Shown piece by piece: positions 27,263-64,000 of a stretch of DNA of 64,000 nucleotides. Location of the stretch: the NCBI GenBank assembly GCA_965198225.1, contig CBDAOY010000006.1:736001-800000 (forward strand), read 5' to 3'. Within the stretch, counting starts at the first letter, position 1. Each line of letters starts with the position of its first letter. Under the pieces are notes generated by a model. It searched no databases, was not told where the DNA came from, and worked only from the letters and a program-made list of their open reading frames with translations. The position numbers were made by a program, and so were the translations under genes. The stretch is from Terriglobia bacterium. GTDB lineage: Bacteria > Acidobacteriota > Terriglobia > 20CM-2-55-15.

Positions 27263-27274
27263 CGGGACCTCCAC

Positions 27275-29379: not shown

Positions 29380-29408
29380 GTTTTTTTGTGTCCCGGATGA
29401 GGAAAAGC

Positions 29409-29435: not shown

Positions 29436-29463
29436 AGATGGAAACCCTTGGAGGTGGACTGCG

Positions 29464-44784: not shown

Positions 44785-45070
44785 AAGAGGTTGCTAACGG
44801 GAAGCCGACACGTTCGCTTGCTGCGGATCAGTTCCCTTATACCGCATTAGTGACAAGCGAGTGTAGGTGCGGTCTATGACCGCACACTCCCCAAGCCCGA
44901 ACAATGTGTAGACCGTAGGTTCATAAGAGGTTGCTAACGGGAAGCCGACACGTTCGCTTGCTGCGGATCAGTTCCCTTATACCGCATTAGTGACAAGCGA
45001 GTGTAGGTGCGGTCTATGACCGCACACTCCCCAAGCCCGAACAATGTGCGGTCACAGACCGCACCTACAC
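44777..45070. repeat. 132-bp exact tandem duplication ending in a REP
   Basis: 44777-44908 equals 44917-45048. REP arms at 44861 and 45001-45070. Confidence 0.9.
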
Positions 45071-45112
45071 CTCCGGCCCCGCCGACTCTGCGTGATAAAA
45101 TCAGATACACCC

Positions 45113-46687: not shown

Positions 46688-46977
46688 CAGGCCGCAACCC
46701 TTCCCTGTTTCCGAATTAAGACCAGGCTCAGCTGGTATCATGGCCTGAATACAGATCAGGCCGACGCTTAGGGGCCGACGCCGATGCTGACTGGCGTCGG
46801 TCGTAACAGTGGTGTCCGACCCAGTCGTGGAACAAGAGTTCCGAGAGACCCCAGGAAGGCCCAAGCCCCACCGATCCAACACGTTGGCATATTGACTGAA
46901 ACCGGATATCATTGTCGACCCGCCGACCCTACCGCACGGCGTCGGGATGGAATCTTTTGCGGAAGTGGGGAGCTGTA

Positions 46978-49413
46978 GTGAAACACGTCTTTTGTACCCT
47001 TCTGATCGGCCTAGGAGTGCCTGTCTTGTGCTCGCCTCTATGGGCCCAGTCGCTCGGCACCGTCGAGGGCGTCGTCACACTGCCGACCGATGCCCCGATC
47101 CACCGTGCCAGTGTGCTGTTGACCCCGTTGGGACGAATCGCGGAAACCGATGCGAACGGTCGTTTCCGCTTCGAGAACGTGCCTCCCGGAAACTATGAAC
47201 TGGCTGCTTTCCGGTGGATGCTCGCCGCTGAGGCCCCGGGGATTGCGATCACAGGCGGGGAAACGCTGCAAGTCAACATGCGACTCGGTCCGGCGCTTGT
47301 CGCGATGGAGATGAAGGTTGGAGAGTACGGCCGAAGGGCGGCTCTCGCGGGACCTGTTCCAGAATCCCCAGAACCGTCGGTCCCGTCCGCGCCGCAAGAA
47401 TCCGCCCTCGCCCCGGTTTCCGTTCTCGATGCGTCGCTGATTCCCGACGCGGTGTCCCCCACGTTGGGAGACGTGCTCGACTCCCGACTGGGCTTCGCCA
47501 GGCGCAGTTTCGGTACGGGGAACGCGCGACCCATCGTGCGAGGACTCGACAGCGACCGGGTCCTGATCCTCGAGGACGGTCTCAGAGTGGGCTCGTTGGC
47601 CTCTCAATCCGGCGACCATGTCGAACCGGTCGACGCGAGCAGCCTGGATCGCCTCGAATTCGTCAAAGGACCGTCCACGCTGCTTTACGGGAGTAACGCG
47701 ATCGGTCGCGCGATCAACGCCATCAGCAACAATCTGGATGCACGCACCGAGGCCGGTCAAGGCTTGCGTGGCAGGGTGTCTTCGGCCGTGGGAACCGTGG
47801 GAACCGGCAGCGCCTACGCCGGTGGTGGTGTGAACTTGGAATACGGGGCGCGTAACTGGCGGCTTTGGCTGGGTGGCAGTAGCCGCCGAGCAGGGGACTA
47901 CGACTCGCCTCTCGGTCCGGTCGACAACTCCAGGAACCGGATCACCAACGGATCTGCAGGATTCGGCTGGTCTGATCGTAGTACCTACCTGGGAGTCGAC
48001 TACAAGGCCGCCGAGGGGCGTTACGGAATCCCATTCGCAGACGTATTCCGTCAGCCGGACGACCCCAGCGCCGCCAACCTGGAGGCCGTGGACGTTCGGT
48101 TCCGGCGGAACAACATCCGGCTCTTCGGAGGAGTTCGCGATCTCGGCTCGGCGGTCGAGGGCTTCGAATTCACAATGAACTACGGCTACTGGAACCACGA
48201 CGAGGTGGAAGCCTTCACCGACAGTGTGTCTGCCGTTGCCAACCGTTTCGAGAACCGGGAGCTGACCTACCGGGGCGTGTTCGACCAACTCCGGCGAGGC
48301 CGGGTCGACGGCCGCTTTGGCTTTTCGGCCTCCAACCGAGAGTACCGACCCAGCGGAGAGCAGGCGTTAGCGCCGCCTGTGCGTCGGAATGCCTTCGCCG
48401 TGTTCGGGGTCGAAGAACTAGACCTCGATCCGTTCCAGCTGGAGGAGGGCGGACGCCTCGACTTTGCCGGCGACGCACTTCGGGGCGTCATTGTCCGCAG
48501 GCTCAGCCCGGAAGGGGACGAGGAAGAAGCTCCCCAACCGGCTGGCTTCGAAACGGCGTTCATTCCTCATCAGAGCTTCACCGGCGGTTCCGCCGGAATC
48601 GGCGGACGGTACGAGGTCTGGAACGGCGGGACAATCAGAGTCGATTTGACGAGTTCGTTCCGGGCTCCAGCCCTCGAGGAGCTTTACAGCTTTGGTCCGC
48701 ACGCCGGCGGCCTGACCTTCGACATCGGGGACTCGAGCCTCGGGCGCGAGCGTTCCAACGGCATCGATGTCTCGTTCCGACACCGGAGGAACACGTTTCG
48801 TGCTGGAGTGGACGTCTTCTACTACGGCCTCGACGACTACGTGTTTTTCGCGCCGAACCCACGGTTTCAGGAGGGATTGCTCGAAGCCGAGTACTTTCAG
48901 GGCGACGCCCGGTTCCGAGGGATGGAGCTGGCGATGGATTTCGCCGTGCGCCCCTCTCTCTGGCTGAACATGGGGATGGAGATGGTCCAGTCGAAACTCA
49001 AGGCGATCGGCACTCCGCCGCCGCGCATCCCACCTCTTCGAGCGACTTTTGGCCTGGACTACCATCTCAACCGCCTGCGCATCCGGCCGCAGATCGTCGT
49101 CGCCGATGCCCGCAACGACGTGTACTCGGGCGAGAATCCGACACCGGGATACGGGTTGGTCAACCTTGCGGCGTCGTACACGATTCCCCGGGAGCATTCG
49201 TCGCATCGACTTGCGTTCAACCTTTTCAACGCAGGAAATAGGCTCTACCGAAACCACGCCAGTTTGATCAAGAACCTGGTCCCCGAAATGGGGCGTGCTA
49301 TCCGGTTTTCATACGCGCTTGAGTTTGTGAGATCGCCGCGGTCTCGAGTCTCGTTTTTCGACCCCACACCCAATCAAACTGACCCGGGCCGGAAATCCGG
49401 GCCAGACCGATAA
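46978..49413 (+). CDS. TonB-dependent receptor (ZnuD-like) with carboxypeptidase-regulatory N-domain
   Basis: RPIVRGLDSDRV, KGPSTLLYGSNAIG, RAPALEELYS, NLFNAGNRLY, GRAIRFSYALEF. Confidence 0.88.
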   Translation: MKHVFCTLLIGLGVPVLCSPLWAQSLGTVEGVVTLPTDAPIHRASVLLTPLGRIAETDANGRFRFENVPPGNYELAAFRWMLAAEAPGIAITGGETLQVNMRLGPALVAMEMKVGEYGRRAALAGPVPESPEPSVPSAPQESALAPVSVLDASLIPDAVSPTLGDVLDSRLGFARRSFGTGNARPIVRGLDSDRVLILEDGLRVGSLASQSGDHVEPVDASSLDRLEFVKGPSTLLYGSNAIGRAINAISNNLDARTEAGQGLRGRVSSAVGTVGTGSAYAGGGVNLEYGARNWRLWLGGSSRRAGDYDSPLGPVDNSRNRITNGSAGFGWSDRSTYLGVDYKAAEGRYGIPFADVFRQPDDPSAANLEAVDVRFRRNNIRLFGGVRDLGSAVEGFEFTMNYGYWNHDEVEAFTDSVSAVANRFENRELTYRGVFDQLRRGRVDGRFGFSASNREYRPSGEQALAPPVRRNAFAVFGVEELDLDPFQLEEGGRLDFAGDALRGVIVRRLSPEGDEEEAPQPAGFETAFIPHQSFTGGSAGIGGRYEVWNGGTIRVDLTSSFRAPALEELYSFGPHAGGLTFDIGDSSLGRERSNGIDVSFRHRRNTFRAGVDVFYYGLDDYVFFAPNPRFQEGLLEAEYFQGDARFRGMELAMDFAVRPSLWLNMGMEMVQSKLKAIGTPPPRIPPLRATFGLDYHLNRLRIRPQIVVADARNDVYSGENPTPGYGLVNLAASYTIPREHSSHRLAFNLFNAGNRLYRNHASLIKNLVPEMGRAIRFSYALEFVRSPRSRVSFFDPTPNQTDPGRKSGPDR

Positions 49414-49433
49414 CGCCAGCTGGAGGAAATAGC

Positions 49434-51080
49434 ATGTGGAGAGCCGGTTTTGCGGCTACCGTCTTGGTTTGTGGTCACGCCTTCTTCTGTATGTCGCATT
49501 TGTTCGCTCAAGACACCTCGTCCGACGACATCGAGCTCAGAAGAGCCGCACTGGAAGGGGAGGTCCCTCTCACCCTGCGCCGATCTATCGAACTGGCGCT
49601 CGAGAACAATCCCGAACTTGTCGTCGAAAAGCTGAGGGTCGAACAGGCGCGGGCGGGAGTCCAGGAGGAGAAAGGCTTCTACGATCCGGTGTTCGACATA
49701 TCCGGTCTGGTCGGTCGCCGGGACAACGTCGTCGCAAGCCGGTTTTTCCCGACCGGGCTCTACGTGGAACAGGACGCGATATACGGAGCTCGCCTGAATG
49801 GAATTACGCATATGGGCTCCCGGTACGGCGTGGACATCAACTTCCATCGGCAACACTCGACATCGAATACACAATCCCTGAGTCCTCAATTCGCGGCGAC
49901 TCTGGGTCTGACATTCAGCCAGCCCCTCTTCAGGGATTCCGGCTCCGAGGTCGTCCTGACGCGGTTACGGGTCGCCGAGAGACAGCAGGAAATCTCTGAA
50001 GAAGACCTCGCAGTCGGGGTCTCCAACGTGATCTTCCAGGTGGTCCAGGCCTACTGGAACCTTGTTTTTCTGAGGGAGGATCTGGAGGTCCGAAGAACGA
50101 GCCTCGCGTTGGCCGAAGCGCTGCGCGAGCAGAATGAGAATCTTTTCAGCGCGGGACAGGTGCGTTCGGTCAGCCTGCATGAGGCGCGGGCGGGGGTCTT
50201 CGAGCGCGAGGAAGATGTCATCCGCTTCGAAAACGAGGTCGCAAGAGCGCAGGACCTGCTCAAGGTGCTGCTCTACGCGGATCTCTCGACGGTTACCTTG
50301 ATCCCGGGCGACGCATTGGACGACGTAACGGTCGACCTGGACCCACAACGCAGTTACGACCTCGCTGCGAGTGCGAGGCCCGAGCTTCTCCGGCTTCAGA
50401 GGGAGATCGAACTACGGGGCCATGAAAAGAATTTCGCGACCAACCAGGTCCGCCCACGCCTCGACTTGAACGTGCAATACGGCATGACCGGCCTCTCGGG
50501 AAGGCCCAACCGGACGCTCGTGAATCCCGGTTCTCCCGAGCTCGGCACCGCGGGCGACACGGTCGCCGGCTCTGTTTTTGCGGGGATCACGCGGCCGCTT
50601 GGCGCGTTCAACAGCTTCTTTACAGGGGACGGTTTCGACTACTGGAACGTCGAGCTGAGGCTGGAGCTCCCCCTCCGGAACCGGACGGCGGAAGCGCGGC
50701 TTGCCGACGCCAACCTTCGTCTGCGGGAGAGCGAGGTCACACTCGCGGCTCTTCGGGAGCGGGTCGTGCTGCAAGTCCGGGACGCCATTCGGAACATCGA
50801 GACCGCCGGACAGAGCGTCGATGCGGCCCGTGAGGCGGTCCGGTTCGTGGAAGAGCAGCTGTTGGCCACCCGGGTTCAGTTCGCGGCGGGCCTGACGACG
50901 AGCTATGAAGTCCTCCGAGTGCTGGACACTCTGGCCCAGGCCCGACGGCGCGAGCTGAGGGGGTTGATGGATCACAACATTGCTCGTGCTGCTCTGAGGG
51001 CAGCGGAAGGCACCATGCTGGATTACTACAACATCGAGGTCCGCGGATCCTCGCTTGCGGCTGATGAGGGATCGTTTTGA
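49434..51080 (+). CDS. TolC family outer membrane protein
   Basis: LTLRRSIELALENN, FSQPLF, VVQAYWNL, LELPLRNR, FAAGLTTSYEV. Confidence 0.9.
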   Translation: MWRAGFAATVLVCGHAFFCMSHLFAQDTSSDDIELRRAALEGEVPLTLRRSIELALENNPELVVEKLRVEQARAGVQEEKGFYDPVFDISGLVGRRDNVVASRFFPTGLYVEQDAIYGARLNGITHMGSRYGVDINFHRQHSTSNTQSLSPQFAATLGLTFSQPLFRDSGSEVVLTRLRVAERQQEISEEDLAVGVSNVIFQVVQAYWNLVFLREDLEVRRTSLALAEALREQNENLFSAGQVRSVSLHEARAGVFEREEDVIRFENEVARAQDLLKVLLYADLSTVTLIPGDALDDVTVDLDPQRSYDLAASARPELLRLQREIELRGHEKNFATNQVRPRLDLNVQYGMTGLSGRPNRTLVNPGSPELGTAGDTVAGSVFAGITRPLGAFNSFFTGDGFDYWNVELRLELPLRNRTAEARLADANLRLRESEVTLAALRERVVLQVRDAIRNIETAGQSVDAAREAVRFVEEQLLATRVQFAAGLTTSYEVLRVLDTLAQARRRELRGLMDHNIARAALRAAEGTMLDYYNIEVRGSSLAADEGSF

Positions 51081-51898
51081 GCATCCGTTATGCATCCCTC
51101 GGTCTTGGCTTGATCTTATCCACCGGCTTCGGTCCTGGTGCTGCCGCCGCCCAGGATACCGCGACGGGCGTGGTACGCGCCGAAGAGGCCGTGGTCGTGA
51201 GAAGCGAGGTCGCAGGAATCATCCGGAGCATCGAAGTCCGCGAGGGGCAGGAGGTTTCCAAGGGGCTGGTCCTGGTACAGATGCGAAGCGACATTCAGGA
51301 AATCGGTGTCCGGCTTGCGGACGCCGGGCTGTCGAGAGCCGAAGCCGCCGCGGCCGCGTCTCGAGTAACGCTTGAGAATGCACGACACACTCTGGCAAGG
51401 GTTGAAATCGCCGCCGAAGCCTTGACGGAGAAAGAGCGCGAAGATGTGGCCGATGAAGTGCTGCGGCTGGAGGCGTTGTTGCGGGCCCAGGAGGCGGAGG
51501 TTGCCGAGGCGCGCGTGGAGCGGGATCTCAGGCGACGCCAGCTCGATGAAACCCGCATCTCATCCCCTTTTGATGGAACGGTGACGATCATCCGGATTCA
51601 GAAGGGTGACACCGTGGCGCCACTCGACACTCCTTTACTGGTTCTGGTGAACCTGGATCGCTTGTACGTCGAGCTGGCGCTGCCGGTTGACGAGATCCCG
51701 AACGTGGCGGAGGGCCGTTCCGTCGAGGTTCAGGTGGAGGCTGGGGTCCTCGGATCCTCGGGTCATGTCGAAGGCGTGGTCAGCTACGTGAACCCGACAG
51801 TCGATCCCTCCAGCCGCACGTTCCTGGTCAAAATTGGAATTCCCAGTCCGTCGCGGAGGATTCGACCCGGCATGCGAGCCGAGGTCCGTCTGCCTTAA
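51077..51898 (+). CDS. Membrane fusion protein (RND/HlyD-type adaptor)
   Basis: EVAGIIRSIEVREGQEV, ISSPFDGTV, NPTVDPSSRTF, IRPGM. Confidence 0.9.
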   Translation: MSIRYASLGLGLILSTGFGPGAAAAQDTATGVVRAEEAVVVRSEVAGIIRSIEVREGQEVSKGLVLVQMRSDIQEIGVRLADAGLSRAEAAAAASRVTLENARHTLARVEIAAEALTEKEREDVADEVLRLEALLRAQEAEVAEARVERDLRRRQLDETRISSPFDGTVTIIRIQKGDTVAPLDTPLLVLVNLDRLYVELALPVDEIPNVAEGRSVEVQVEAGVLGSSGHVEGVVSYVNPTVDPSSRTFLVKIGIPSPSRRIRPGMRAEVRLP

Positions 51899-52089
51899 GC
51901 AGGGCCCTTAGGGCTTCGTTTTCAGTCGGCGTAAGTGTATGATTCAAGATCAGAAAGAGCAAGTCGCGGACGAGGACAATTGGGCCCGCGGCACTCAGAG
52001 CTGGGTAAGAAACCCTTGACGAGCTGTGGGCGTCAACGCTCCCTCCGTTTCCCGGGATAAGGACTCCCCGATCAGAATCTCCAGCACAG

Positions 52090-54018
52090 ATGACCGGGAC
52101 TGCGTTCCGGCGCGTTCCGACAGGATGGATCCCTGTCGGCGCGGTGGTTGTGGGCATGGAATACAGAGAGACGTACCGCGAATCCGAGACGCGCAACCTG
52201 ATCGAGGAGCTGGAACAACTGCGCCGTTTCGACGGACCTCCAGCGGAGTTCTGGCCGTCTTTTCTGGAAAAAGCAGGCCTCTTGGTCGCGGCGAGACTTG
52301 CGCTTCTACTGGCACCGGGCGATGACGATACTTCCTGGAAGCATCTCGGCCTCTGGCCCGACAGGAGCCGCGGCCTGATCAAGGTTCCCGAACTCGCAAT
52401 CCGGATCGAGGAAGTAGCCCGCGAATCACTCGCCGAACGCTCCGCGTGGACCACAAACGGGCAACTTCCCGCCGCCCTTGGCGCCGCTTCGCTGGTCGGG
52501 GTGCGCCTCGGCGTGGACGAAGGCCGCTACGCCGTGGCGGTGGTCCTCCTGGCGGATGCGTCCGAGACGCGCGCCGAGGAGGCAAGTGTCCGTCTGAATC
52601 TCATCGCCGACACACCGAGTGTGTACCAGCTCGGCCGCCTCCTAGGTCAGGCCAAGGAGGACGTCGGGAAATTCAGCGACGGTCTGGACCTGCTGGTCCT
52701 GCTCAATGAGAAAAAGAGATATGTCGCCGCCGCGATGACCTTCGCGAATGAGGTCGCGTCCAGGTACCGATGCGATCGGGTCTCGTTGGGATGGCTGAAG
52801 GGCGGTTACGTTCGGATCCAGGCCATCAGCCACATCGAGCGGTTCGAGAAAAAGATGGACGTCGTCCAGGACCTCGAGTCCGTGATGGAGGAGTCGCTGG
52901 ACCAGGACGAGGAGATCCTCTGGCCGAGGCCGGCCGAAAGCACGGCGATCACCCGCAACCATGAATCGTTCTCCAAGAGGGAGGGCTCGGGCAACCTCGT
53001 GTCGCTCCCGATCCGGCTCGACGACGCGCCGATCGGCGTGTTGACTTGCGAACGATCACGCGAGCCGTTTTCCGAATCCGCCGTTCGAAGTCTGCGATTG
53101 TTGTGTGATCTGGCAGCGCGCCGCCTCGGCGACCTGAAGGACCACGACCGCTGGGTCGGAGCCAGGATGGCCGCCGCGGCGCGCGAAGGCGCCGCCCGCC
53201 TTGTCGGCGTGGAACACACTTTCGCCAAGCTCGCCGGCATCCTCGTTGCCGGACTTCTTGCCTTCGGCATTTTTGGACGGCTGGACTACCGGGTAGAAGC
53301 TCCGTTCGTACTCAAGTCTGACGACGTCGCTTACTTGTCGGCGCCCTTCGACGGCTACATCGATCAGGTGCTCGTGGATGTCGGCGACTTCGTGGAGCCG
53401 GGAGATCTGCTCCTCAGCTTCGACACGCGCGAATTCCTTCTTGAAGAAGCAACCGCGATCGCCAATCAGATTCGCTTCGAGAGGGAAGAGGAAAGAGCCC
53501 GGGCCGAACGGGCGGTCGCGGACATGATGGTCGCCGAGGCGCTGGCCGATCAGGCCGGGGCGCAGTTGGGCCTGGTCCGGCACTATCTGGGGCAGTCCGA
53601 GGTCCGGGCGGCGTTCAGCGGCATCGTCGTCGAAGGCGACCTCAAGGAATTGCGCGGCACCCCCTCCCGAAAGGGCGACGTGTTGTTCAAAATCGCGCGC
53701 ACGGAGAACCTTTACGCCGAGCTGGAGATTGACGAGAGAGATGCCCACGAGGTGTCCGATTCGGCGAGCGGCGAGGTCAGCTTCTTGAGCCGGCCGGACC
53801 TCACATTCCCAATAACGGTAGAGCGCACCGATCCCGTCGCAGTGACCGAGGACGAACAGAACGTGTTCATCGCCCGCGCCGATTTCACCCTCGAAGCGGC
53901 CCCCTGGTGGCGGCCGGGAATGAGCGGGGTTGCCAAGGTCGATATCGGGAGGCGCAACGTGCTTTGGATATTGACGCACCGGACGATCGACTTCCTCCGC
54001 ATCTTCTTCTGGTGGTAA
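52090..54018 (+). CDS. GAF-domain HlyD-family adaptor protein
   Basis: CDRVSLG..AISH..MEESLDQ, SLPI..IGVLTCER (GAF); APFDGYI, WRPGMSGVAKV. Start may be ATG 52156. Confidence 0.85.
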   Translation: MTGTAFRRVPTGWIPVGAVVVGMEYRETYRESETRNLIEELEQLRRFDGPPAEFWPSFLEKAGLLVAARLALLLAPGDDDTSWKHLGLWPDRSRGLIKVPELAIRIEEVARESLAERSAWTTNGQLPAALGAASLVGVRLGVDEGRYAVAVVLLADASETRAEEASVRLNLIADTPSVYQLGRLLGQAKEDVGKFSDGLDLLVLLNEKKRYVAAAMTFANEVASRYRCDRVSLGWLKGGYVRIQAISHIERFEKKMDVVQDLESVMEESLDQDEEILWPRPAESTAITRNHESFSKREGSGNLVSLPIRLDDAPIGVLTCERSREPFSESAVRSLRLLCDLAARRLGDLKDHDRWVGARMAAAAREGAARLVGVEHTFAKLAGILVAGLLAFGIFGRLDYRVEAPFVLKSDDVAYLSAPFDGYIDQVLVDVGDFVEPGDLLLSFDTREFLLEEATAIANQIRFEREEERARAERAVADMMVAEALADQAGAQLGLVRHYLGQSEVRAAFSGIVVEGDLKELRGTPSRKGDVLFKIARTENLYAELEIDERDAHEVSDSASGEVSFLSRPDLTFPITVERTDPVAVTEDEQNVFIARADFTLEAAPWWRPGMSGVAKVDIGRRNVLWILTHRTIDFLRIFFWW

Positions 54019-54024
54019 CCGGAC

Positions 54025-56178
54025 ATGGCAACGGGCAAGACCTTCAGTGAGTCCTGGCACCGTGTGGCGGGGCTCGAGATCAGCCTCCGGCCGACGGTGC
54101 AGGTTCGCAAGCAGTATTTTCGCGGCGAGAAGTGGTATGTCCTGGAGGACCCTTTCAACAATCAGTTCTTCCGCCTGCGTCCGGAGGCCTACGACTTCGT
54201 GTCCCGTCTCCAGCCGGGCCGGACGGTGGAAGCGGTGTGGGAGGAGTGCCTCACCCGGCGTCCAGACGACGCCCCCGGACAGGAAGATGCGATTCGGCTG
54301 CTGAGCCAGCTCTACTTCGCGAACCTGCTCTATTTCGAGGCGCCCGGCGACAGCGAAAAGCTCTTCGAACGGTACAGTCAGCGGCGCCAGCGCGAAGTCC
54401 GGTCGAAGCTGCTCTCCATCATGTTCATCCGGCTCCCGCTCCTGGACCCGGACTACTTTCTCCGGCGACTAATGCCTCTCATCCGGCTCCTCGTCAGCCC
54501 GCTTGCCGCCCTCGTCTGGCTGAGTGTGGTCGGCGTCGCGATCAAGCTCGTCGTCGACAATTTCGACGAAGTCGTGAATCAGACCCAGGCCATCCTGGCT
54601 CCCGACAACCTGCCGTTGCTTTATCTGGGACTGGTTCTGATCAAGGCTGTTCACGAGTTCGGCCACGCCATCGTGTGCAGGCGTTTCGGTGGCGAAGTGC
54701 ACACGATGGGGGTCATGCTGCTGGTCTTTACGCCGCTCCCCTACATGGACGCCACCTCGAGTTGGTCGTTTCGGAGCCGCTGGCGCCGGGCCCTGGTGGG
54801 CGCCGCCGGGATGATCACGGAACTGTTCGTGGCGGCCCTGGCAACGTTCGTCTGGGCGAACACGGGCGCCGGGACGCTAAACAGCCTCGCCTACAACATG
54901 ATGTTCGTCGCTTCTGTCTCAACGGTCATTTTCAACGCCAACCCGCTGCTCCGTTTCGACGGTTACTACATCCTGTCCGACATCCTCGAGATCCCCAACC
55001 TGTCATCCCGGGCATTTCAGCAAATGCGCCACGTCGTCGAGCGGTATCTCTTCGGCTACCGGGGTTCCCAGAGTCCGGCTCGAACGCTGAAAGAGTCCAT
55101 ATTGCTCGCTACTTTCGGTGTCTTGAGCGGAATCTACAAACTCGTGGTTTTTGCCGGCATCGTATTGTTCGTCGCCGACAAGCTCTTCCTCGCTGGGTTG
55201 GTCATGGCCGCGGTGTGCGTCTTTGCCTGGCTGGTGGTTCCACTCGGCCGGCTCGTTACCTACGTTGCTACCGGCCCCCACCTGGCCCGCACCCGCGCTC
55301 GGGTGGCCCTCGTCTGTCTGGGGGCCGTCGGGCTTGTCGTCGGTTTTTTCGGGCTCTATCCCTTTCCCCACCGTTTTCGCGCGCCTGGCGTTCTCGAGGC
55401 GGTCGAGTACGAGCGTGTCGCCAATGACGCCGCCGGCTATGTCACCTCCGCCCTGACCCCGTCCGGTACGTGGGTTCAACCGGGTACGGCGTTGTTCCAA
55501 CTATCCAACCCGGAACTCCAGTTTGAGATGGATGCTGCACTGGCTGAGCGTCAGGAGGGCCTCGTCTTTCTGCAGCGCGCCTTGAGCCAGCAGGTGTCCG
55601 ATGTGGAGCCGATCCGAAGACGGCTGGAGACCATAGAAAAGAAGCTTGCCGACCTGGAGGAGACCCGGTCGGCCCTGCTCGTCACCTCCAACCAGGAAGG
55701 CGTATGGGTAACGCCCGAGGGGGGGCAATTGGTCGGGGCGTGGATACCGAGGGGTTCGGTCCTCGGGCAGATCGTGAATACTGAGAGTTTCCGGTTCGCC
55801 GCCGCCGTTTTGCAGGATGAGGCCTCCAATCTGTTCGCCGTGGGAATCCGCGACGCAGAGGTTCGTCTTCGAGGAGAGGGAGAGCGCAACCTGGCGGTGA
55901 CGACCTATTTGAGCATTCCGTTCGAGTACCAGCGACTGCCTTCTCCGGCCCTCGGCTGGCTTGGCGGCGGGGACGTTCCCGTAGCGCTGTCGGATGAAAC
56001 GGGCCTGATGGCCACCGAGCCATTTTTTCAGATATACGCCTACCTGGACCCCGTCCCCGACGTGACGTATCTGCACGGGCGATCCGGACAGATCCGCTTC
56101 ACCCTCGAGCCCCAGCCGCTCCTCCAACAGTGGATCCGAAAGTTCCGCCGCCTGTTGCAGAAGAGGTACCAGATCTGA
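54025..56178 (+). CDS. PqqD-like / M50 (site-2) metallopeptidase / MFP fusion
   Basis: N-terminal YVLEDP..FFRL..YDFVSRLQPGRTVEAVW; HEFGH; NANPLLRFDGY; C-terminal lipoyl/hairpin MFP region. Confidence 0.85.
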   Translation: MATGKTFSESWHRVAGLEISLRPTVQVRKQYFRGEKWYVLEDPFNNQFFRLRPEAYDFVSRLQPGRTVEAVWEECLTRRPDDAPGQEDAIRLLSQLYFANLLYFEAPGDSEKLFERYSQRRQREVRSKLLSIMFIRLPLLDPDYFLRRLMPLIRLLVSPLAALVWLSVVGVAIKLVVDNFDEVVNQTQAILAPDNLPLLYLGLVLIKAVHEFGHAIVCRRFGGEVHTMGVMLLVFTPLPYMDATSSWSFRSRWRRALVGAAGMITELFVAALATFVWANTGAGTLNSLAYNMMFVASVSTVIFNANPLLRFDGYYILSDILEIPNLSSRAFQQMRHVVERYLFGYRGSQSPARTLKESILLATFGVLSGIYKLVVFAGIVLFVADKLFLAGLVMAAVCVFAWLVVPLGRLVTYVATGPHLARTRARVALVCLGAVGLVVGFFGLYPFPHRFRAPGVLEAVEYERVANDAAGYVTSALTPSGTWVQPGTALFQLSNPELQFEMDAALAERQEGLVFLQRALSQQVSDVEPIRRRLETIEKKLADLEETRSALLVTSNQEGVWVTPEGGQLVGAWIPRGSVLGQIVNTESFRFAAAVLQDEASNLFAVGIRDAEVRLRGEGERNLAVTTYLSIPFEYQRLPSPALGWLGGGDVPVALSDETGLMATEPFFQIYAYLDPVPDVTYLHGRSGQIRFTLEPQPLLQQWIRKFRRLLQKRYQI

Positions 56179-58166
56179 TCCTTCCCACCCAGGACTACCG
56201 GAGAACGGCCGCCGTCGAGCCTCCGAAACTGCATCGCGGTTGGGATGGAGCCGCACACGGGCTCGTGGGGTACTGGAGGCGGCACTCTCGCGTTTCCGGT
56301 CGTCTCAACGCGCAGTCCAAACGAATCTACGAGGAGGCTGCCGGGCTCGGGCGGCTTTCGGACCGGTTGCTCCGAGATCGCCTGTCGGAGATGAGGAAAC
56401 TGTTCAGGCGCCGGGATGCCCGGAGCGAGGAAGTGCTTCCAACGGCGCTGGCCTGTATGGTCGAGGCGGCTGAAAGGACGTTGGGACTGCGTCCGTACCC
56501 GGTCCAGATCGTCGGTGCTCTCGCGCTGGATCAGGGGTTTCTGACAGAAATGGCAACGGGCGAGGGGAAGACCCTGACCGCTTGCCTCCCCATGACCCTG
56601 GCCGGATGGACTGGCCTGCCTGCGCATCTGGTGACCGTGAACGACTATCTGAGCGATCGCGACGCCGCCGAGATGCGGCCGTTCTACTCCTTCTGCGGAG
56701 TGTCGGTCGGGTGTGTCACCAGCGAGATGAGTCCTCAGGAACGCTATCTCAACTACCAGAAGGGGGTCGTCTACATCACCAGCAAGGAGCTGGTTGCGGA
56801 CTTTCTCCGCGACCGATTGCGTCTGGGAAAGCTGCACCAACCGACGCGCCGCCTCATCCGCAAGATGCTTCAGGGACGACCGTTCGGGCCCGACGATATC
56901 GTGATGCGCGGTCTCGACACCGCGATCGTAGACGAGGCCGACAGCGTCCTGATCGATGAAGCCGTCACGCCCCTGATCATCGCGCGCGCGCGCGAGAACG
57001 AGACGCTCAGGGAAGCGTGCCGTGTGGCGAGCGAAATTGCGGACTCACTGACAGCGGGTACGGACTACCGGGTTGATCTGAAGTATCGGGAAATCCGTCT
57101 GACGGATGCCGCGGAGCGGAAAATCGATGCGCTTTCCGAAAAACTGCCTGGGGTCTGGCAGGGAGCGCTCCGCAGGGAAGAGCTGGTGCAGCAGGCCATC
57201 ACGGCGCGGGAGTTCTACCACCGCGACAAGCAGTATGTCGTCGCGGATGATCACGTCACAATCGTCGATGAATTCACCGGCCGCCTGATGCCCAACCGAA
57301 CCTGGAGGTCCGGGCTGCACCAGGCCGTTGAAGCCAAGGAGGGGCTGGACGCGACCTCTCCCACCGAAACGCTGGCCCGCTTGAGCTTCCAGCGTTTCTT
57401 CCGTCTATTCAGGCGCCTGGGCGGAATGACGGGTACGGCCAGCGAAGCAGCGACCGAATTCTGGCACATCTACGGGTTGCCGATGCTTTCGGTTCCGACC
57501 CACAAGCCTTGTGTTAGACAGACGTATCCAGACCGGGTGTTTGCCGGCGGTACGGACAAGTTCCAGGCCATCGTCGAAGAGATCGTTCAATGGCACGCAA
57601 TCGGACGTCCCGTCCTTGTCGGAACCCGGAGCGTACAGGCGAGCGAGACGCTCGCTTCGATGCTCGGAGCGCGAGGCCTGAGCTTTAACCTTCTGAATGC
57701 CACGCGACACAGCGAGGAGGCGCGCATCGTAGCGGCCGCCGGCCAGCTCGGCAGGATTACGATCGCGACCAATATGGCGGGACGGGGGACCGACATCAAG
57801 CTGGGGCGCGGTGTCGCGGATCTGGGGGGACTGCATGTCATCGCCTCCGAGCGTCACGAATCCCGTCGCATCGACCGGCAGCTCTTCGGCAGGAGCGCGC
57901 GGCAGGGAGACCCGGGAAGCGCCCGGGCCTACGTGAGTGTCGACGACGAGTTGATCCAGCGATTCGTTCCGGCATGGCTCCGGCTCCGGCTCAAGCAAGC
58001 CGTCGACGCCGATCTGCCGGTCGCTCCCCGCCTTGCGAAACAGACGCTTTCGCATGCCCAGAGAGGGGCCGAGAAGCTTGCTTTTCGGCAGCGCAAGAGT
58101 GTGCTTCAGACCGACGACCAGCTCGAGCAGAGCCTTGGTTTTTCCGGCTCGGCCGGAGGGTTCTGA
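56130..58166 (+). CDS. secA: Accessory, C-terminally truncated SecA (DEAD motor only)
   Basis: EMATGEGKT, VDEADSVLIDEA, IVDEFTGR, GLHQAVEAKE, GMTGTA, IATNMAGRGTDI, ERHESRRIDRQLFGRSARQGDPG. Ends about 80 aa after motif VI. Start uncertain (GTG 56130 or CTG 56175). Confidence 0.88.
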   Translation: MDPKVPPPVAEEVPDLILPTQDYRRTAAVEPPKLHRGWDGAAHGLVGYWRRHSRVSGRLNAQSKRIYEEAAGLGRLSDRLLRDRLSEMRKLFRRRDARSEEVLPTALACMVEAAERTLGLRPYPVQIVGALALDQGFLTEMATGEGKTLTACLPMTLAGWTGLPAHLVTVNDYLSDRDAAEMRPFYSFCGVSVGCVTSEMSPQERYLNYQKGVVYITSKELVADFLRDRLRLGKLHQPTRRLIRKMLQGRPFGPDDIVMRGLDTAIVDEADSVLIDEAVTPLIIARARENETLREACRVASEIADSLTAGTDYRVDLKYREIRLTDAAERKIDALSEKLPGVWQGALRREELVQQAITAREFYHRDKQYVVADDHVTIVDEFTGRLMPNRTWRSGLHQAVEAKEGLDATSPTETLARLSFQRFFRLFRRLGGMTGTASEAATEFWHIYGLPMLSVPTHKPCVRQTYPDRVFAGGTDKFQAIVEEIVQWHAIGRPVLVGTRSVQASETLASMLGARGLSFNLLNATRHSEEARIVAAAGQLGRITIATNMAGRGTDIKLGRGVADLGGLHVIASERHESRRIDRQLFGRSARQGDPGSARAYVSVDDELIQRFVPAWLRLRLKQAVDADLPVAPRLAKQTLSHAQRGAEKLAFRQRKSVLQTDDQLEQSLGFSGSAGGF

Positions 58167-58172
58167 AAACCC

Positions 58173-58355
58173 TGAAGGTCCGGTCTACGACCGCACACTG
58201 TTCTGGTCAAGGATGGCGTGGGGGGACCGGACCAACTGTCTTTCTCCGCGAACCCACGCACTGCAATTCGGTCCGTGAACGTTCAGTCTTTCGTCGTGAG
58301 GGGGACGGTGGGCCCGACGCTAATAGATGGTTCCGCTCATAGAGCGCAACTACAC
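58173..58355. repeat. Degenerate REP arms
   Basis: GGTCCGGTCTACGACCGCAC ... GTTCCGCTCATAGAGCGCAACTACAC. Confidence 0.6.
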
Positions 58356-58434
58356 CCGATCCTGGAGCTTCGCTTGCCTCCGGCACCGAGACCTCTTCGC
58401 GGACTCGACGCAGCGTCTCCAACTGCAGCCGAGT

Positions 58435-58911
58435 TCAGGCTCCCGGTTGGCCTCCCGGAGCGCTGCCGGTTTGGGGGCTGACGTGGGGCAGATAGTTGAC
58501 GCGAAGAGGAAGCCTCGTCAGCAGCTCCACCTTTCCCCGGTCGTCGAGTAATATTTCAAACCAGTACACCCCGGCCATTTCGATCCTCATCTTCAGGTGG
58601 GCCACGAGGTCGCCACTCCTGTCGTCTTCTCCTTCGAAGTTCACCGCCTGACGCACCATCTCCTTCGACTCTCCGGACGGCGCTACAAGCCGGACGAGGA
58701 CCGAGTACAGCCCCCGCGTTGCGCCCGAGGTGAACTTGATCAGCAGGGCAAGCTGGTAGTCAAAAGGCGGCAGTGTCGCGGGGGCATCGGGTCCCACGCG
58801 CACATGGGTGATCCGGTCGATAATACGGACGGGCGTCTTGATGCCGTCCTTTTCCTCCAGAAGCTTCTCGCACAGCAGCGCTGTGATATACGGGCCCTGA
58901 CTATCGTTCAT
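58435..58911 (-). CDS. Hypothetical beta-rich protein (DUF6941-like)
   Basis: ALLCEKLLEEKDG..IIDRIT..GVYWFEILLD..LPLRV. Confidence 0.65.
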   Translation of the reverse strand: MNDSQGPYITALLCEKLLEEKDGIKTPVRIIDRITHVRVGPDAPATLPPFDYQLALLIKFTSGATRGLYSVLVRLVAPSGESKEMVRQAVNFEGEDDRSGDLVAHLKMRIEMAGVYWFEILLDDRGKVELLTRLPLRVNYLPHVSPQTGSAPGGQPGA

Positions 58912-59281
58912 TGATCTTTTTGCTCCGCAGCGAATTTTCGAACGTCCCTCGACGTTGAGCGATCGCCCGCCCCTCCGGAGTTTCGAGTTTTCCGGTCGGA
59001 GAGGCCGGCGACGGGCTCAACCGGACTGAACTCGGCCCCTAAGAGCAACTCGTGAGTGCCTGGCGAAGAGGGTTACTCCGGTGGCCATCTTGTCGTACGA
59101 TGAATTACACAGACGAGACACTGTAACATATTGAATGTAAATGGCTTTATGTTCCTCCGACTCTCCCCAGAAGGCCATCAGTGCCGCACGCTGATTTCCT
59201 AGGAATCCCAAGATAAACCTTGACAGGTCTCTCTTCACAGTACTAAGAGACGCATTCGTACTTGCCACCAAGTAGGACAAA

Positions 59282-62200
59282 TTGAGCCGAAAGCGAACTC
59301 ATAAGAGATACGAGCTCGAGAACCTCGAGCCGCGCATCCTTCTTTCCGGCGACCCGCTGGTCGGCGCCGTTGCAGCCCTTGCGCCCGGCGATCCGGACTC
59401 CGAAGAGTCCGCGCTCGCTTCGACCGAAGAGGTCCTCGGCTCGGAAGAGAGTAACGTCTACGATCCTCCCTCGGCCGACTCTGAATCCTACGATCCTTCC
59501 GAGCCTCTTGACGACATTTTTTCCGGTTTGACCGGTGACGATGTCTCGAGCGACGAGGCGGAGGAGCCGGCCGGAGGCGACGAAACCTACGACACAGATC
59601 GCCCGATCGGGAACAGCGAGGAAGCGCAGATTCTGCTTGGCCTGACGGAGTTGGTCCGGCTCGGCGAGCGCGTGGAGCTGTCCGAGGCGTTGGCCGCGCC
59701 GTTGCTCGGCCTGGGTGATGCCTCGCTGGGAGAACTGGTCGGCCTGGTCGAGATTCTCGATTCGCGACTTGCGAAATCGGTATATGACTACTTCGGTGAT
59801 GCGGTCGATCCTCCGACCGGTGAGGGAATCTTACAGGCTCTCAGCCAGAGCCTCAACACCCTGGGTGATCTCGGAATAAAAGTGAGTTCGCTCGAGGGTG
59901 GTTTTGTGTCTGCGGCCGGCGAACTCCGCTTCGACGTCGCTTTCACCGCCAGCCGGGAAGGGCAACTGCTTCTCGGTGATGAAGAAACAGGTTCCGACCA
60001 GCCCCATCCTGCCGACTACGTTGCGACTCTGGAGTTGGATATCAGCTTCGGCGTCGATCTCGATCGCGCGGACGGCTTCTTCCTGGCCGTTCGGTCATTC
60101 ACTCTTGGATTGACGGTTTCGACGACCGACGGCGGTGGCTCAGAGCCGCTGGCAGGCCGGGTGGACGTCGGTGTCGAGGATGCAGACGGAGACGGGCGCG
60201 TCGGCCTGGGCGAACTCCAGGCGATCAACGCCGGGAGTCCGGGCCTGGAGATCCGAACGGCAGGTTCGCTGTTTGACACCGCTGCCGAAAATATTGCGCC
60301 ATCGGTCTTGGCGACTGCAATCGAGGGGGCTGAGGCCGAAACGAGCGGCCTGGTGCTGGATGGAGGTCTCAGCGGGAACTCGGCGGCCACCACCAATCTC
60401 GCCGAACTGGATCTCGGACCCGGCTCCACAACCGTGATCGAGATCGGAGGCACCACCGCCGGAACCCAATATGACCAGATCATCGTGGCCGGCAATGCCG
60501 ATCTGGGCGGCACGCTCGACATCGATCTGACCAGCGGCTTCAGTCCGGCCGTCGGCGACATCTTCGAGGTCATCACCTACGGGTCGGCCACCGGCTCGTT
60601 CGCGAGCTTTACCGACCTGAATCTCGGAGGGGGCCTGGAATTAGTCCCGATCCAGGGGCCGGGAAGCCTGCTCCTGATCGCGGTTCCCGACATCGCCGCA
60701 GCCGCCGGCCTCCTGGTGGCGATCCAGGCGGAGCTGGACAAGTACATCAACGGAACAAACACCGGCGATCTCACGATTTCCCCGGGCTCCGTCCAGCTTG
60801 ACGGCTTCCTGCAGCTGCTCGATCTGTCGCTGATCTTCACCGGCATCACGCACAACGGTACGAATATCACGGCCGGAAGCGTGACGGTCGAAGCCGGGTC
60901 GGCCCTGCTCTTCCCCGGCCAGCCCCTCTTCATCGGTGCCAGTGACGGTGGGGATGGAGATGCCCTGGCGCTCAGCGGCACCTACGACCCCGTTGCCGAG
61001 ACCTTCTCTCTCGTCGTCGATCAGCTCGACGTAATCGTCGCGGGCGTCTTCACCGCCCATGCCGACACGGTGACGGTGACCTACGATCCCAACGACGCGG
61101 ATCCCAGCCAGACCCTGGTCACGATCGGCAGCGCGGATGTCATATTCCAGGGTCTGGCCGACACGACGGCCACCGTCAGCAACCTGACGATTCGCAAGGA
61201 CGGCTTCTCGGCGGCCAACGCGACGGTAGCGGCACCGGATATCACCTGGATCGGTGTTTTCGAGCTGACCGGCCTCACGCTCACCTTCGCGAACCTGGAT
61301 TATTCAACGGCGACGCAGGCGCTGGCCGGAACGATAACGGTTTCAGCGACGACGGTGAGCCTCTTCGAAACCGTGGGTCCGTTCAGTTCCACCGTCACCG
61401 GCTTCACCGGAAGCTACGACCTTCAGACCAAGGCCCTGAGTCTCTCGGCGACCAGCGTCGACCTGGATTTCGGCGCCACGCTCCAGGTGAACCTCCAGTC
61501 GGTAGCCTTCGATATGGATCCGGGAGCGGAGACGTTCCGGGTCTCGACAGGCCTGTCCACCGCGACGGTTGCCGGCTTCGTGGGCATTAGCGGGAACTTC
61601 GGCCTGGCTTCGGAGAGCGGCGACATCCTCGTCGTGGCCGATACCGTGACGGCGACACTGGATGCCGGGGTGTTCGAGGTCGGCGTCACCGGCGGAACGC
61701 TGGCCTTGATCGTCAAGGCGGACGAAACGGTCGCATTGCAGGCAAGCGGCGGCCTGGTCTTTTCGGGTGGCAACTTTGCCAACGCCAGCGCCACCTCCGT
61801 GACAGTCAAGTTCAACAACACTGGAGCGAACGTCGATACGACCGTGACGGTGGGAGCGGTGAGCGCGCCTTTGCAGGTCACCGACGGGACGACCGCCGTG
61901 ACAGCGGTCGGGGTGTCGGTGGATCTGGCCGGTTTCGTCACCTTCGGTGGGGACTTCGGGTTCGAGAAATCGGGCACCACGATCATTGCGTCGGCCGATC
62001 AGGCGTTTGCGACGCTGGTAGCGGGCCCGTTCGCGGTCGGCGTGACGGGCGGCAGCCTGGCACTGATCCTGAATGACGACGGGACCCTGGCCCTGCAGGC
62101 GAGTGGCGGTCTGACCTTCTCGGGCGGGAACTTCGCCAACGCGAGTGCCACCTCGGTGACGGTCAAATACAACGACACGGGAGCGGACGTAAACACGACG

Positions 62201-64000
62201 GTGGCGGTGGGAGCGGTGAGCGCGCCTTTGCAGGTCACCGATGGCACGACGAGCGTGGAGGTGGTCGGCCTGCAGGTAGACCTGGCCGGTTTCGTCACCT
62301 TCGGTGGGGACTTCGGGTTCGAGAAGTCAGGAACCACGATCCGGGCGGCGGGTGCTCAGGTGTTCGCGAGGCTGGAAGCGGGCCCGTTTGCGGTCGGTGT
62401 GACGGGTGGGAGCCTGGCACTGATCCTGAATGACGACGGGACCCTGGCCCTGCAGGCGGGCGGCACCCTGGTATTCAGCGGCGGGAACTTCGCCAGTCCC
62501 AGCGCGACGTCGGTAACAGTCCGGTTCAACGACACGGGAACGAACGTCGACACGACGGTGGTGGTGGGAGCGGTGAGTGCGCCGCTGCAGGTCACCGACG
62601 GGACGACGAGCGTGGAAATCGTGGGCCTGCAGGTAGACCTGGCCGGTTTCGTCACCTTCGGTGGGGACTTCGGGTTCGAGAAGTCGGGCACCACGATAGT
62701 AGCGGCCGCCGATCAGGTGTCTGCGACGATGGTCGCGGGCCCGTTCTCGGTGGGTGTGACCGGCGGGACGCTGGCGCTGATCCTGAATGACGACGGAACG
62801 CTGGCCCTGCAGGCCGGCGGAAGCCTGACATTCACGGGCGGGAACTTCGCCAATGCGAGCGCGACGTCGGTGACGGTGAAGTTCAACGACACGGGAGCGA
62901 ACGTCGACACGACGGTGGTGGTGGGAGCGGTGAGTGCGCCGCTGCAGGTCACCGACGGGACGACGAGCGTGGAAATCGTGGGCCTGCAGGTAGACCTGGC
63001 CGGTTTCGTCACCTTCGGTGGGGACTTCGGGTTCGAGAAGTCGGGCACCACGATAGTAGCGGCCGCCGACCAGGTGTCCGCGACGCTGGCGGCGGGCCCG
63101 TTCGCGGTCGGCGTGACGGGCGGGACGCTGGCGCTGATCCTGAACGACGGAGGCACGCTGGCACTGCAAGCCAGTGGTGGTTTGGCCTTCTCGGGTGGCA
63201 ACTTCGCCAACGCCAGCGCAACGTCGGTAACGGTGAAGTTCAACGACACGGGAGCGAACGTCGACACGACGGTGACGGTGGGAGCGGTGAGTGCGCCGTT
63301 GCAGGTGACCAACGGCACGACGACCGTGACAGCGGTCGGGGTGTCGGTGGATCTGGCCGGTTTCGTCACCTTCGGTGGGGACTTCGGGTTCGAGAAGTCG
63401 GGCAGCACGATCACTGCGGCGGCCGATCAGGTGTTTGCGACGCTGGGAGCGGGTCCGTTTGCGGTCGGTGTGACGGGCGGGACGCTGACGACGGAACGCT
63501 GGCACTGCAGGCCGGCGGAAGCCTGACATTCACGGGCGGGAACTTTGCCAACGCGAGCGCGACATCGGTGACGGTGAAGTTCAACGACACGGGAGCGAAC
63601 GTCGACACGAGTGTGACGGTGGGAGCGGTGACGGCGCCGTTGCAGGTGACGGACGGGACGACGAGCGTGGAGGTGATCGGCCTGCAGGTGGATCTGGCGG
63701 GTTTTGTCACCTTCGGCGGGGATTTCGGGTTCGAGAAGTCGGGCACGACGATCCGGGCGGCGGCCGATCAAGTGTTTGCGACGCTGGGAGCGGGCCCGTT
63801 TGCGGTGGGAGTGACGGGCGGGGCCCTGGCGCTGATCCTGAATGACGACGGAACGCTGGCACTGCAGGCCGGCGGAAGCCTGACGTTCACGGGCGGGAGC
63901 TTCGCTAACGCGAGCGCGACGTCGGTGACGGTGCGGTTCAACGACACGGGAGCGAACGTCGACACGACGGTGGCGGTAGGAGCGGTAAGTGCGCCGCTGC
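59282..64000 (+). CDS. Giant LEPR-xLL leader extracellular repeat protein; 16-nt deletion frameshift at ~63487; runs off the window
   Basis: MSRKRTHKRYELENLEPRILLSGD leader; DADGDGRVGLGEL EF-hand-like motif; passenger-like GTQYDQI..GGTLDI. The shifted frame from 63487 stays open to 64000. Confidence 0.85.
61571..64000 (+). repeat. 357-bp (119-aa) tandem repeat, at least 6.8 units
   Basis: AGFV anchors at 61571, 61928, 62285, 62642, 62999, 63356 and 63697. The last interval is 341 bp. Confidence 0.95.

Follow-up and report, generated by a model that had tools for sequence, protein, structure and literature searches.

A gene module in which a 'secondary SecA_DEAD' protein accompanies relatives of type I secretion system (T1SS) proteins was described bioinformatically in 2015 (Kamneva, Poudel & Ward, PLoS One, PMC4452313). 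According to that paper, the module consists of a GAF-HlyD protein, an M50-like/HlyD protein, a SecA_DEAD protein without wing and scaffold domains, a HlyD/biotin-lipoyl protein and sometimes an outer-membrane efflux protein (OEP), with no ABC ATPase; the authors proposed that SecA_DEAD supplies the ATPase and that the M50 protein may serve as a pore, and stressed that the role of the module is unknown. An identical gene set, again with no ABC protein, with a SecA that lacks the SecA_SW domain, with M50+HlyD, GAF+HlyD and HlyD proteins and with the OEP present, is encoded in a 64,000-nucleotide stretch of DNA from a Terriglobia bacterium (GenBank assembly GCA_965198225.1, contig CBDAOY010000006.1, positions 736,001 to 800,000; hereafter the window). 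Five genes lie there head to tail on the plus strand at 49434-58166, followed by a gene for a giant protein with an N-terminal LEPR-XLL motif. We judge the chances to be about even that this locus encodes a dedicated, ABC-independent exporter across both membranes, with LEPR-XLL-leader proteins such as the giant neighbor among its cargo. The module itself has been known since 2015; what is added here is its spread over many more lineages with a rigid gene order, the absence of T1SS-type ABC pumps from 80 related loci, the recurrent LEPR-XLL neighbor and a modelled fold of the leader-recognition (RRE-like) type. An earlier sequence-only reading of the window had described this literature accurately, and its idea of a SecA motor working on an M50-based membrane unit is not new, having been put forward already in PMC4452313. 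In the main text of that paper the words 'Acidobacteria', 'giant', 'PqqD' and 'cargo' do not occur, and 'substrate' appears once, in a statement about T1SS generally.

Aside from this module, several better known systems share some of its features. The classical T1SS (HlyB-HlyD-TolC) resembles the window locus in its conduit, formed from a membrane fusion protein (MFP) and TolC, and in the acidic, Cys-free repeat character of the candidate cargo; here, however, there is no HlyB-type ABC protein, the ATPase is SecA-like and soluble, and three MFP-bearing proteins are found instead of one. In the peptidase-containing ABC transporters (PCATs) that export bacteriocins, an N-terminal leader is recognized and cut by the C39 peptidase domain of the inner-membrane unit, whereas the protease of the window locus is an M50 intramembrane metalloprotease with an RRE-like domain. 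The closest analogy may be such a peptidase-containing exporter in which a SecA motor stands in place of the ABC cassette. The accessory Sec systems of Gram-positive bacteria (SecA2 alone, or together with SecY2 and Asp), which handle giant serine-rich adhesins, likewise have an additional SecA paralog reserved for a small number of very large surface proteins whose N-terminal signals are unusual. SecA2 keeps its scaffold and works at SecY, whereas the window protein lacks scaffold, wing and two-helix finger, has no SecY2 or Asp genes nearby, and is instead partnered with MFP/TolC proteins of a diderm envelope. The HExxH leader peptidases of ribosomally synthesized and post-translationally modified peptides (RiPPs; NF041824, NF058609) provide the best curated matches to the M50 protein, and the fold modelled for its residues ~19-98 resembles that of leader-binding RiPP recognition element (RRE)/PqqD domains; the window protein nevertheless scores below the family cutoffs, is fused to an MFP, resides in a secretion-type operon and has a putative substrate of thousands of residues. 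Scaffold-less SecA and giant proteins are also associated in Omnitrophota and Actinobacteriota, where, according to a preprint (bioRxiv 10.1101/2023.11.21.568195), giant proteins contain SecA_DEAD and preprotein-binding domains without scaffold and wing, and a role in self-export has been proposed for this built-in SecA. The difference is that SecA lies there inside the giant protein, with neighbors resembling type II secretion or type IV pilus systems, whereas here it is a separate protein of 660-680 amino acids (aa) in an MFP/TolC operon.

Open reading frame (ORF) calls in combination with Pfam and NCBIfam profiles placed all five co-oriented genes of the sequence-only reading on the plus strand. 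The first (49434-51080) encodes a 548-aa TolC-family outer-membrane factor with a signal-like hydrophobic stretch at its N-terminus, which matches Pfam OEP in two stretches (E 3.9e-46) and stays below the cutoff of TIGR01844 type_I_sec_TolC (97 bits, cutoff 225). It shares 4 nt with the second gene (51077-51898), coding for a short MFP or periplasmic adaptor of 273 aa with a signal-peptide-like N-terminus (HlyD_D23, E 1.2e-23; HlyD_3, E 1.5e-17), which passes TIGR01730 RND_mfp with 128.5 bits (cutoff 94.9). The third (52090-54018) encodes the 642-aa GAF-MFP (Pfam GAF, 36 bits; HlyD_3; HlyD_D23), in which Pfam and hydropathy delineate cytoplasmic residues 1-215, a GAF domain at 216-346, one transmembrane helix at ~378-396 and a periplasmic MFP part at 405-623. 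Pfam gave no match for residues 1-215 (52090-52734); a protein-atlas feature search, to be taken as a lead only, groups them near GAF-domain clusters (scores 0.93-0.97), and they may form a second GAF-like domain. The fourth gene (54025-56178) encodes the 717-aa M50-MFP, in which an RRE/PqqD-like region (~19-98) precedes the M50 (~150-445) and MFP (446-717) parts, and the fifth (56130-58166) a truncated SecA-like ATPase. None of the five proteins passed a model of NCBIfam release 20 as a dedicated family, and Rfam returned no RNA family at E<=1 for 49000-64000.

The gene arrangement is not peculiar to the window. A pattern scan of species-representative genomes, one per species, gave at least 587 confirmed stretches, of which 80 loci were kept (1.17 Mb, with up to 10 kb of flank) and their 4042 ORFs of at least 80 aa searched by phmmer with the window proteins as queries. 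Where there was room to see them, the nearest gene 5' of M50-MFP was GAF-MFP in 59 of 61 loci and the nearest 3' gene a SecA-like one in 55 of 62 (at least 2.2 kb of room), while a short MFP and a TolC homolog were found within 7 kb in 46/51 and 29/51 loci, respectively. The order TolC, short MFP, GAF-MFP, M50-MFP, SecA-like is thus conserved, and the module is both widespread and rigid; because the same gene order recurs in related loci, chance is excluded as the origin of the cluster. The 80 loci fall into at least 11 phylum-level groups, with labels from Thermodesulfobacteriota, Nitrospirota, Verrucomicrobiota, Lentisphaerota, Kiritimatiellota, Planctomycetota, Spirochaetota, Elusimicrobiota, Chloroflexota and Chlorobiota, and from one Bacteroidota bin. 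The window M50-MFP groups with proteins from Thermodesulfobacteriota, Nitrospirota and this Bacteroidota-labelled bin (a clade of 10 rows with SH-like support 97 by FastTree, and of 13 rows with SH-aLRT 100 by IQ-TREE). Lateral spread of the module, as proposed by Kamneva et al. (PMC4452313), would fit this pattern.

No ABC pump belongs to this arrangement. Pfam found no ABC_tran domain in 44-64 kb of the window, as the sequence-only reading had noted for the cluster. The same database, applied to 33 further ORFs, revealed a single ABC_tran protein in the window, a lone nucleotide-binding domain (NBD) of 244 aa at 11470-12204, which was rejected as the motor of the cluster since it lies 38 kb upstream and no such gene is present in related loci. 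Within 10 kb, the 80 loci contain no T1SS/HlyB-type ABC protein and only two ORFs with an ABC domain: NCBIfam identified one (L050) as an ABC-F translation factor, and the other (L032) is a small NBD without a membrane domain, its apparent N-terminal end overlapping a genuine M28 peptidase gene. A motif scan for ABC ATPases over 1372 ORFs of at least 200 aa returned the L050 protein alone. A dedicated ABC ATPase past the window edge, which the earlier reading had considered, thus finds no support in the relatives, the DNA past base 64000 lying outside the sequence seen.

The ATPase that does recur is the SecA-like protein. Pfam recognized SecA_DEAD (E 1.2e-90), SecA_PP_bind (E 2e-26) and P-loop_SecA (E 2.7e-58) in the window protein, corresponding to NBD1, the preprotein cross-linking domain (PPXD) and NBD2, and did not find SecA_SW. 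Comparison with solved structures aligned residues 75-668 to residues 22-593 only of B. subtilis SecA (E 2.7e-133), in agreement with the missing C-terminal scaffold and wing domains reported by the sequence-only reading. The ATPase motifs MATGEGKT (Walker A), DEADSVLIDEA (the DEAD-type box) and TNMAGRGTDI are retained in this alignment. The protein ends about 10 residues past the start of the long scaffold helix and lacks the remaining scaffold along with wing, two-helix finger and C-terminal tail. Against the canonical model TIGR00963 it scores 606.7 bits (cutoff 800), with the best stretch covering positions 9-473 of the 787-position profile, and against the NCBIfam SecA2 models 401-512 bits, reaching none of their cutoffs (725-1100). 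Since the window protein and 57 complete homologs from related loci all stop at one place (58/58 aligned), the truncation is a family trait and not local damage. An N-terminal extension (window residues 21-80) is also common to all aligned homologs. The start codon of the window gene is uncertain, as the GTG at 56130 falls inside the M50-MFP gene (49 nt shared) and homologs show little similarity to residues 1-20; over 57 loci, M50-MFP and SecA-like stop codons are 1941-2481 nt apart (median 1991 nt). Among the scanned window ORFs there is no SecY2-, SecY- or Asp-like gene.

Some database proteins join these parts in one chain. P0242, P0243 and P0245 (1373-1405 aa) fuse M50-MFP to the SecA-like protein, and P0246 fuses HlyD parts to it; all four are single-cluster proteins (1373-1506 aa), and the length of P0242 is about the sum of both genes, leaving no extra membrane helix. 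They were not relied on as Rosetta-stone evidence, as such fusions would put a cytoplasmic ATPase behind a periplasmic MFP; they are likely frame errors between overlapping genes, or else have an odd topology. A 3364-aa 'eukprot' model (P0244), 48% identical to the SecA-like protein, contains transporter domains of unrelated kinds next to SecA and M50 and appears to have been merged from bacterial DNA present in eukaryote data.

The M50-MFP protein appears to carry an intact protease site. It passes the Pfam gathering score for Peptidase_M50 (33.1 vs 27.2 bits). In an alignment of 34 homologs, H210, E211 and H214 of the HEFGH zinc-binding motif (residues 210-214; 54652-54666) are invariant, as are N306, P307, D312 and G313 of NPLLRFDG, the second M50 signature (residues 306-313; 54940-54963; all 34/34). 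The latter is presumably the NxxPxxxxDG motif of M50 proteases, which includes the Asp that we take to be the third metal ligand. Multiple hydrophobic helices are distributed over residues 155-445. An AlphaFold2 model built with 34 homologs (mean predicted local distance difference test score, pLDDT, 72.5) has three parts, namely residues 19-98 with three strands followed by three helices (beta-beta-beta-alpha-alpha-alpha), a helical membrane region at ~150-445, and residues 446-717, which Foldseek matched to the MFP fold of MexA, AcrA and MacA (best, MexA, E 4.7e-13). By sequence, residues 21-405 find their top curated family in the daptide_HExxH protease NF041824 (E 3.1e-52; 178 bits, cutoff 300), followed by YydH/LiaK NF058609 (31.6 bits, cutoff 225); judged by these scores the protein is related to the daptide protease and no member of its family. 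A profile of the M50-MFP family searched against PDB sequences gave weak MFP/lipoyl matches alone (best E 0.021) and none for the N-terminal or M50 parts. Among 8000 candidates scored, 6697 relatives had E<=1e-10, and the 120 relatives listed share 61-100% identity (the top one being the window's own protein, the others 61-89%) with nearly all measuring 718 aa, so that the protein is, as far as its sequence tells, unusually constrained.

The N-terminal part of M50-MFP, called PqqD-like in the sequence-only reading, is best discussed at the level of its fold. When residues 1-136 were modelled alone with 33 sequences, pLDDT was 80.4, and the resulting Foldseek list consists mostly of RRE-bearing RiPP enzymes (TigE, ThcOx, LynD/TruD, MibB, MadB). 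TM-scores normalized to the target were 0.67 for PqqD, 0.66 for TbiB1 with leader, 0.70 for a lasso B1 protein with leader and 0.55 for the PbtF RRE (E 0.056-0.11). In addition, P0245, a collinear homolog with 35% identity over 627 aa (E 3e-116), passes the Pfam PqqD model in the matching region (31.2 vs 23.4 bits). The PqqD/RRE-like assignment is therefore supported by the models at fold level, with leader recognition as a putative function. Because this RRE-like domain is combined with the conserved HExxH/NPLLxxDG site and a best match to RiPP leader proteases, the evidence points to the M50 unit as a probable leader peptidase rather than a channel.

A candidate for the leader-bearing substrate lies downstream. 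The first frame of the giant gene (59282-63526, plus strand) has 1414 codons and passes the LEPR-XLL model NF012209 (30.8 bits, cutoff 17); NCBIfam places the motif at residues 12-32 (YELENLEPRILLSGD; 59315-59377), with a basic stretch before it. The 1402 residues ahead of a break in the frame have a pI of 4.05, 165 D+E against 37 K+R, and no Cys. Pfam found no family, including RTX, in the 1414 aa. Tandem Repeats Finder revealed repeats of 357 nt (119 aa) at 61672-64000, with at least 6.6 copies and 83% matches, and three-frame translation with pairwise alignment of the copies located the break at a 13-nt deletion relative to the preceding copy (63487-63488). Odd Cys/Arg-rich tails also terminate P0364 and P0365, the nearest relatives in the database, whose remaining sequence is Cys-free; frame errors in such repeats may be assembly artefacts, or real slippage. 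A search of 1.84 billion representative proteins with residues 1-1200 as the query had 4547 hits at E<=0.001, the longest of 6519 aa; 484 of them reached E<=1e-10 and 89 reached E<=1e-30. A regular expression detected a LEPR-like motif within the first 120 residues of 66 of the 150 best relatives, whose lengths extend to 6145 aa. In six close or long relatives, some of which may be fragments, Pfam found no RTX (HemolysinCabind) and no other informative family above cutoff, with the exception of PKD and Malectin domains in P0378. Aligned leaders consist of a basic start followed by FELEALEPRxLLS(A/G)D, in which E13, L15, E16, R18 and L21 are invariant in 11/11 N-termini and the hydrophobic core is short and broken by charges.

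Beyond the window, the LEPR-XLL neighbor recurs. NCBIfam was applied to the first 150 residues of 97 non-module ORFs of at least 500 aa, and of 8 shorter or regular-expression-picked ORFs. A complete SecA-like gene with 1.2 kb or more of sequence behind it is present in 46 loci, and in eight of these (L002, L006, L011, L015, L022, L023, L047 and L064) a LEPR-XLL gene above cutoff follows, which bears out the giant LEPR-XLL neighbor singled out by the earlier reading. In each of the eight it has the strand of the SecA-like gene and begins 65-277 nt past the stop of the latter. These loci belong to several phyla and to separate clades of the M50-MFP tree, namely a Desulfobacterota-type clade, several of Verrucomicrobiota, and Kiritimatiellota. 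A ninth locus (L043) was picked up by regular expression only, and upstream LEPR-XLL genes are found on the opposite strand in L013 and L028 and on the same strand in L075. Because the motif is rare and its position and strand are constant, the adjacency is taken as non-random, and the LEPR-XLL neighbor is a likely cargo of the module. Literature text searches found no link between the LEPR-XLL motif and the SecA/M50/HlyD module; in the literature searched the motif is named in two papers, on the Vibrio genome discussed below and in a lake metatranscriptome hit list, and the key phrase of Kamneva et al. recurs in a single further paper.

Two variants on this theme concern smaller proteins. In L011 (14312-21203) two LEPR-XLL genes stand in tandem and encode proteins of 264 aa (34.8 bits) and more than 1969 aa (24.5 bits); owing to the former the motif is not confined to giant proteins. 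In two Planctomycetota loci without an adjacent SecA-like gene (L075, 13807-14997; L076, 5720-6988), LEPR-like proteins of ~400 aa, scoring 15.7 and 16.3 bits (cutoff 17), are encoded immediately before the TolC and MFP genes.

In the mechanism that we propose, the RRE/PqqD-like cytoplasmic domain of M50-MFP would bind the leader through its basic stretch and FELEALEPRxLLS sequence. The shortened SecA, which keeps both NBDs and the PPXD with conserved motifs, would then thread the unfolded chain from N- to C-terminus at the expense of ATP, a direction with which an N-terminal signal would fit. The inner membrane might be crossed at an assembly to which M50 contributes its multi-pass domain and GAF-MFP its only transmembrane helix, which is the weakest step, and the leader could be removed by the HExxH/NPLLxxDG site, comparable to the C39 domain of bacteriocin exporters. 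The three MFP domains (of short MFP, GAF-MFP and M50-MFP), recognized by their folds, may assemble into a periplasmic duct onto the TolC-like channel, and the cytoplasmic GAF region may gate activity through a small ligand. The full claim of a distinct and widespread class of double-membrane secretion, in which an RRE reads LEPR-XLL, a scaffold-less SecA threads the chain via M50/MFP into TolC and M50 cuts the leader, is advanced tentatively, as something possible and rather less than probable.

A number of observations weigh against such an exporter. No protein-conducting inner-membrane channel is evident among the module parts, and M50 proteases are not known to form one. The SecA-like protein is devoid of the scaffold and two-helix finger that canonical SecA uses at SecY, and in 7 of the 62 loci with room (L016, L032, L034, L039, L066, L075 and L076) an adjacent SecA-like gene is missing altogether. 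The window M50-MFP itself fails the Pfam PqqD model (PF05402; E 0.19, 12.5 bits, cutoff 23.4), and Foldseek with its N-terminal model returned nothing at E<=0.001 (best E 0.011), so that the PqqD label of the earlier reading held for the fold and for the P0245 homolog and not for the window sequence by Pfam. Similarly, the very large acidic repeat protein which that reading saw following the cluster does exist, with its LEPR-XLL motif, low pI and repeats. Its ORF, however, is broken at ~63487 while the repeat stays open in the frame of 63301 through base 64000; the gene is either frameshifted or mis-assembled, and 1414 aa is a lower bound because the repeat continues in another frame to the window end. 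Moreover, 1.1 kb separates the SecA-like and LEPR genes and holds a minus-strand ORF (58435-58911, 158 aa) that narrowly misses the DUF6941 model (26.6 bits, cutoff 27) and has no homolog in the 80 related loci; an uninformative scan of 58000-59400 yielded no promoters and two terminator-like sites where 1.3 were expected. In the remaining 37 of the 46 loci with room, unrelated genes follow the SecA-like gene, and the cargo may be encoded elsewhere or be different. In Methylobacterium extorquens AM1, according to PMC4452313, exponential-phase expression was found for the GAF gene of the module only. Finally, a Vibrio genome encodes a protein of ~8000 aa that has LEPR-XLL at its N-terminus and RTX and serralysin-type domains at its C-terminus (PMC10868602), and because of this C-terminus some LEPR-XLL proteins may leave via a classical T1SS.

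One rival explanation, which we consider unlikely, is export in two steps, in which the SecA-like protein would serve the housekeeping SecYEG like an accessory SecA2 and bring the chain into the periplasm, from where MFP-TolC would expel it in the way proposed for MacAB-TolC with some peptides. The strong homology to SecA including the PPXD, the matches to NCBIfam SecA2 models (all below cutoff) and a leader made of a basic N-region and a short hydrophobic stretch would suit this route, and SecA2 offers a precedent for giant adhesins (see also PMC4452313). However, the SecY-contacting scaffold helix, the wing and the two-helix finger are missing in 58/58 aligned members, the scanned window ORFs include no SecY2- or Asp-like gene, and the hydrophobic core of the leader is interrupted by charges as well as short.

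Improbable too, in our judgement, is a device for processing or retention, in which the giant protein would exit by an ABC T1SS encoded elsewhere, guided by a C-terminal signal, and the GAF-controlled M50 would cut LEPR-XLL in the manner of LapG/LapD on LapA. This proposal makes good use of the conserved protease site and the sensor domain, and of the Vibrio LEPR-XLL protein with its C-terminal RTX and serralysin-type domains (PMC10868602); the C-terminus of the giant protein lies outside the window, leaving room for a C-terminal signal. However, processing alone would require neither a dedicated TolC and three MFP domains nor an ATPase that has a preprotein-binding domain, no HlyB-type ABC is encoded within 10 kb in the 80 loci, and none of the six relatives scanned, some perhaps fragments, carries an RTX repeat.

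Maturation and efflux of a small RiPP- or bacteriocin-like peptide, processed by RRE and M50 and expelled through MFP-TolC with the giant neighbor unrelated, is quite improbable. The M50 unit does have RiPP leader proteases as its best curated matches and an RRE-like fold at its N-terminus, but the operon showed neither a gene for a short precursor nor one for a RiPP-modifying enzyme, small peptides would not require a SecA motor that carries a preprotein clamp, and LEPR-XLL adjacency is found in 8/46 loci across phyla. That the adjacency in the window is accidental and the LEPR gene a decaying pseudogene, for which the frameshift at ~63487, the 1.1-kb gap with its opposite-strand ORF and the 37/46 related loci without such a neighbor could be cited, is highly improbable given the same adjacency and orientation in eight of the 46 loci from different clades and the odd tails of P0364/P0365, which suggest that frame errors are common in assemblies of these repeats.

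Should the module indeed be an exporter across both membranes, it would represent a secretion route outside the standard lists of types I-XI, driven by a SecA paralog at a site other than SecY and present in hundreds of species from soil, sediment and water. The LEPR-XLL motif, which NCBI annotates on very large proteins, would then gain a function, and the export of LEPR-XLL proteins of thousands of residues in many phyla would be explained. The module has been an orphan with a purely computational description since 2015, and candidates for its cargo class (LEPR-XLL) and its recognition domain (RRE) now make it testable. The host of the window module is plausibly an acidobacterium. Of 120 listed relatives of the alanine racemase encoded in the window, the single one bearing an organism name comes from a Terriglobia bacterium (60% identity). 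An Acidobacteriota label was given to none of the 80 kept loci, which says little since they are 80 of at least 587 stretches; the suggestion in the sequence-only reading that the known range is thereby extended is plausible as to the host, but carries little weight with the module already in at least 11 phylum-level groups.

Other genes of the window lie outside the module. A DUF1570+TonB_C protein and a TonB-dependent receptor (CarboxypepD_reg) are encoded at 45044-49413 on the plus strand, 20 nt before the TolC gene. These two, the DUF6941-like ORF and a cyclase were tried as module parts and rejected, as they recur in 0/80 loci. Farther upstream, a PadR regulator is paired with a duplicated permease (ADOP) at 4686-7665 (plus strand), and the two pass the Acidobacteria-named NCBIfam models TIGR03433 (126.6 vs 101.8 bits) and TIGR03434 (682.7 vs 622.3 bits). 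A gene group of the cyclic-di-GMP type extends over 22528-31725 and comprises three short HD_5 (HD-GYP-type) proteins (22528-23268, 23824-24426 and 26660-27274), two of which are adjoined by S8 subtilase genes (24441-26426 and 27275-29281), and an HD_5+GAF+GGDEF protein (29464-31725). Between this group and the PadR/ADOP pair, a 1295-aa protein with AMP-binding, phosphopantetheine-binding and acyltransferase domains is encoded at 16043-19930 on the plus strand.

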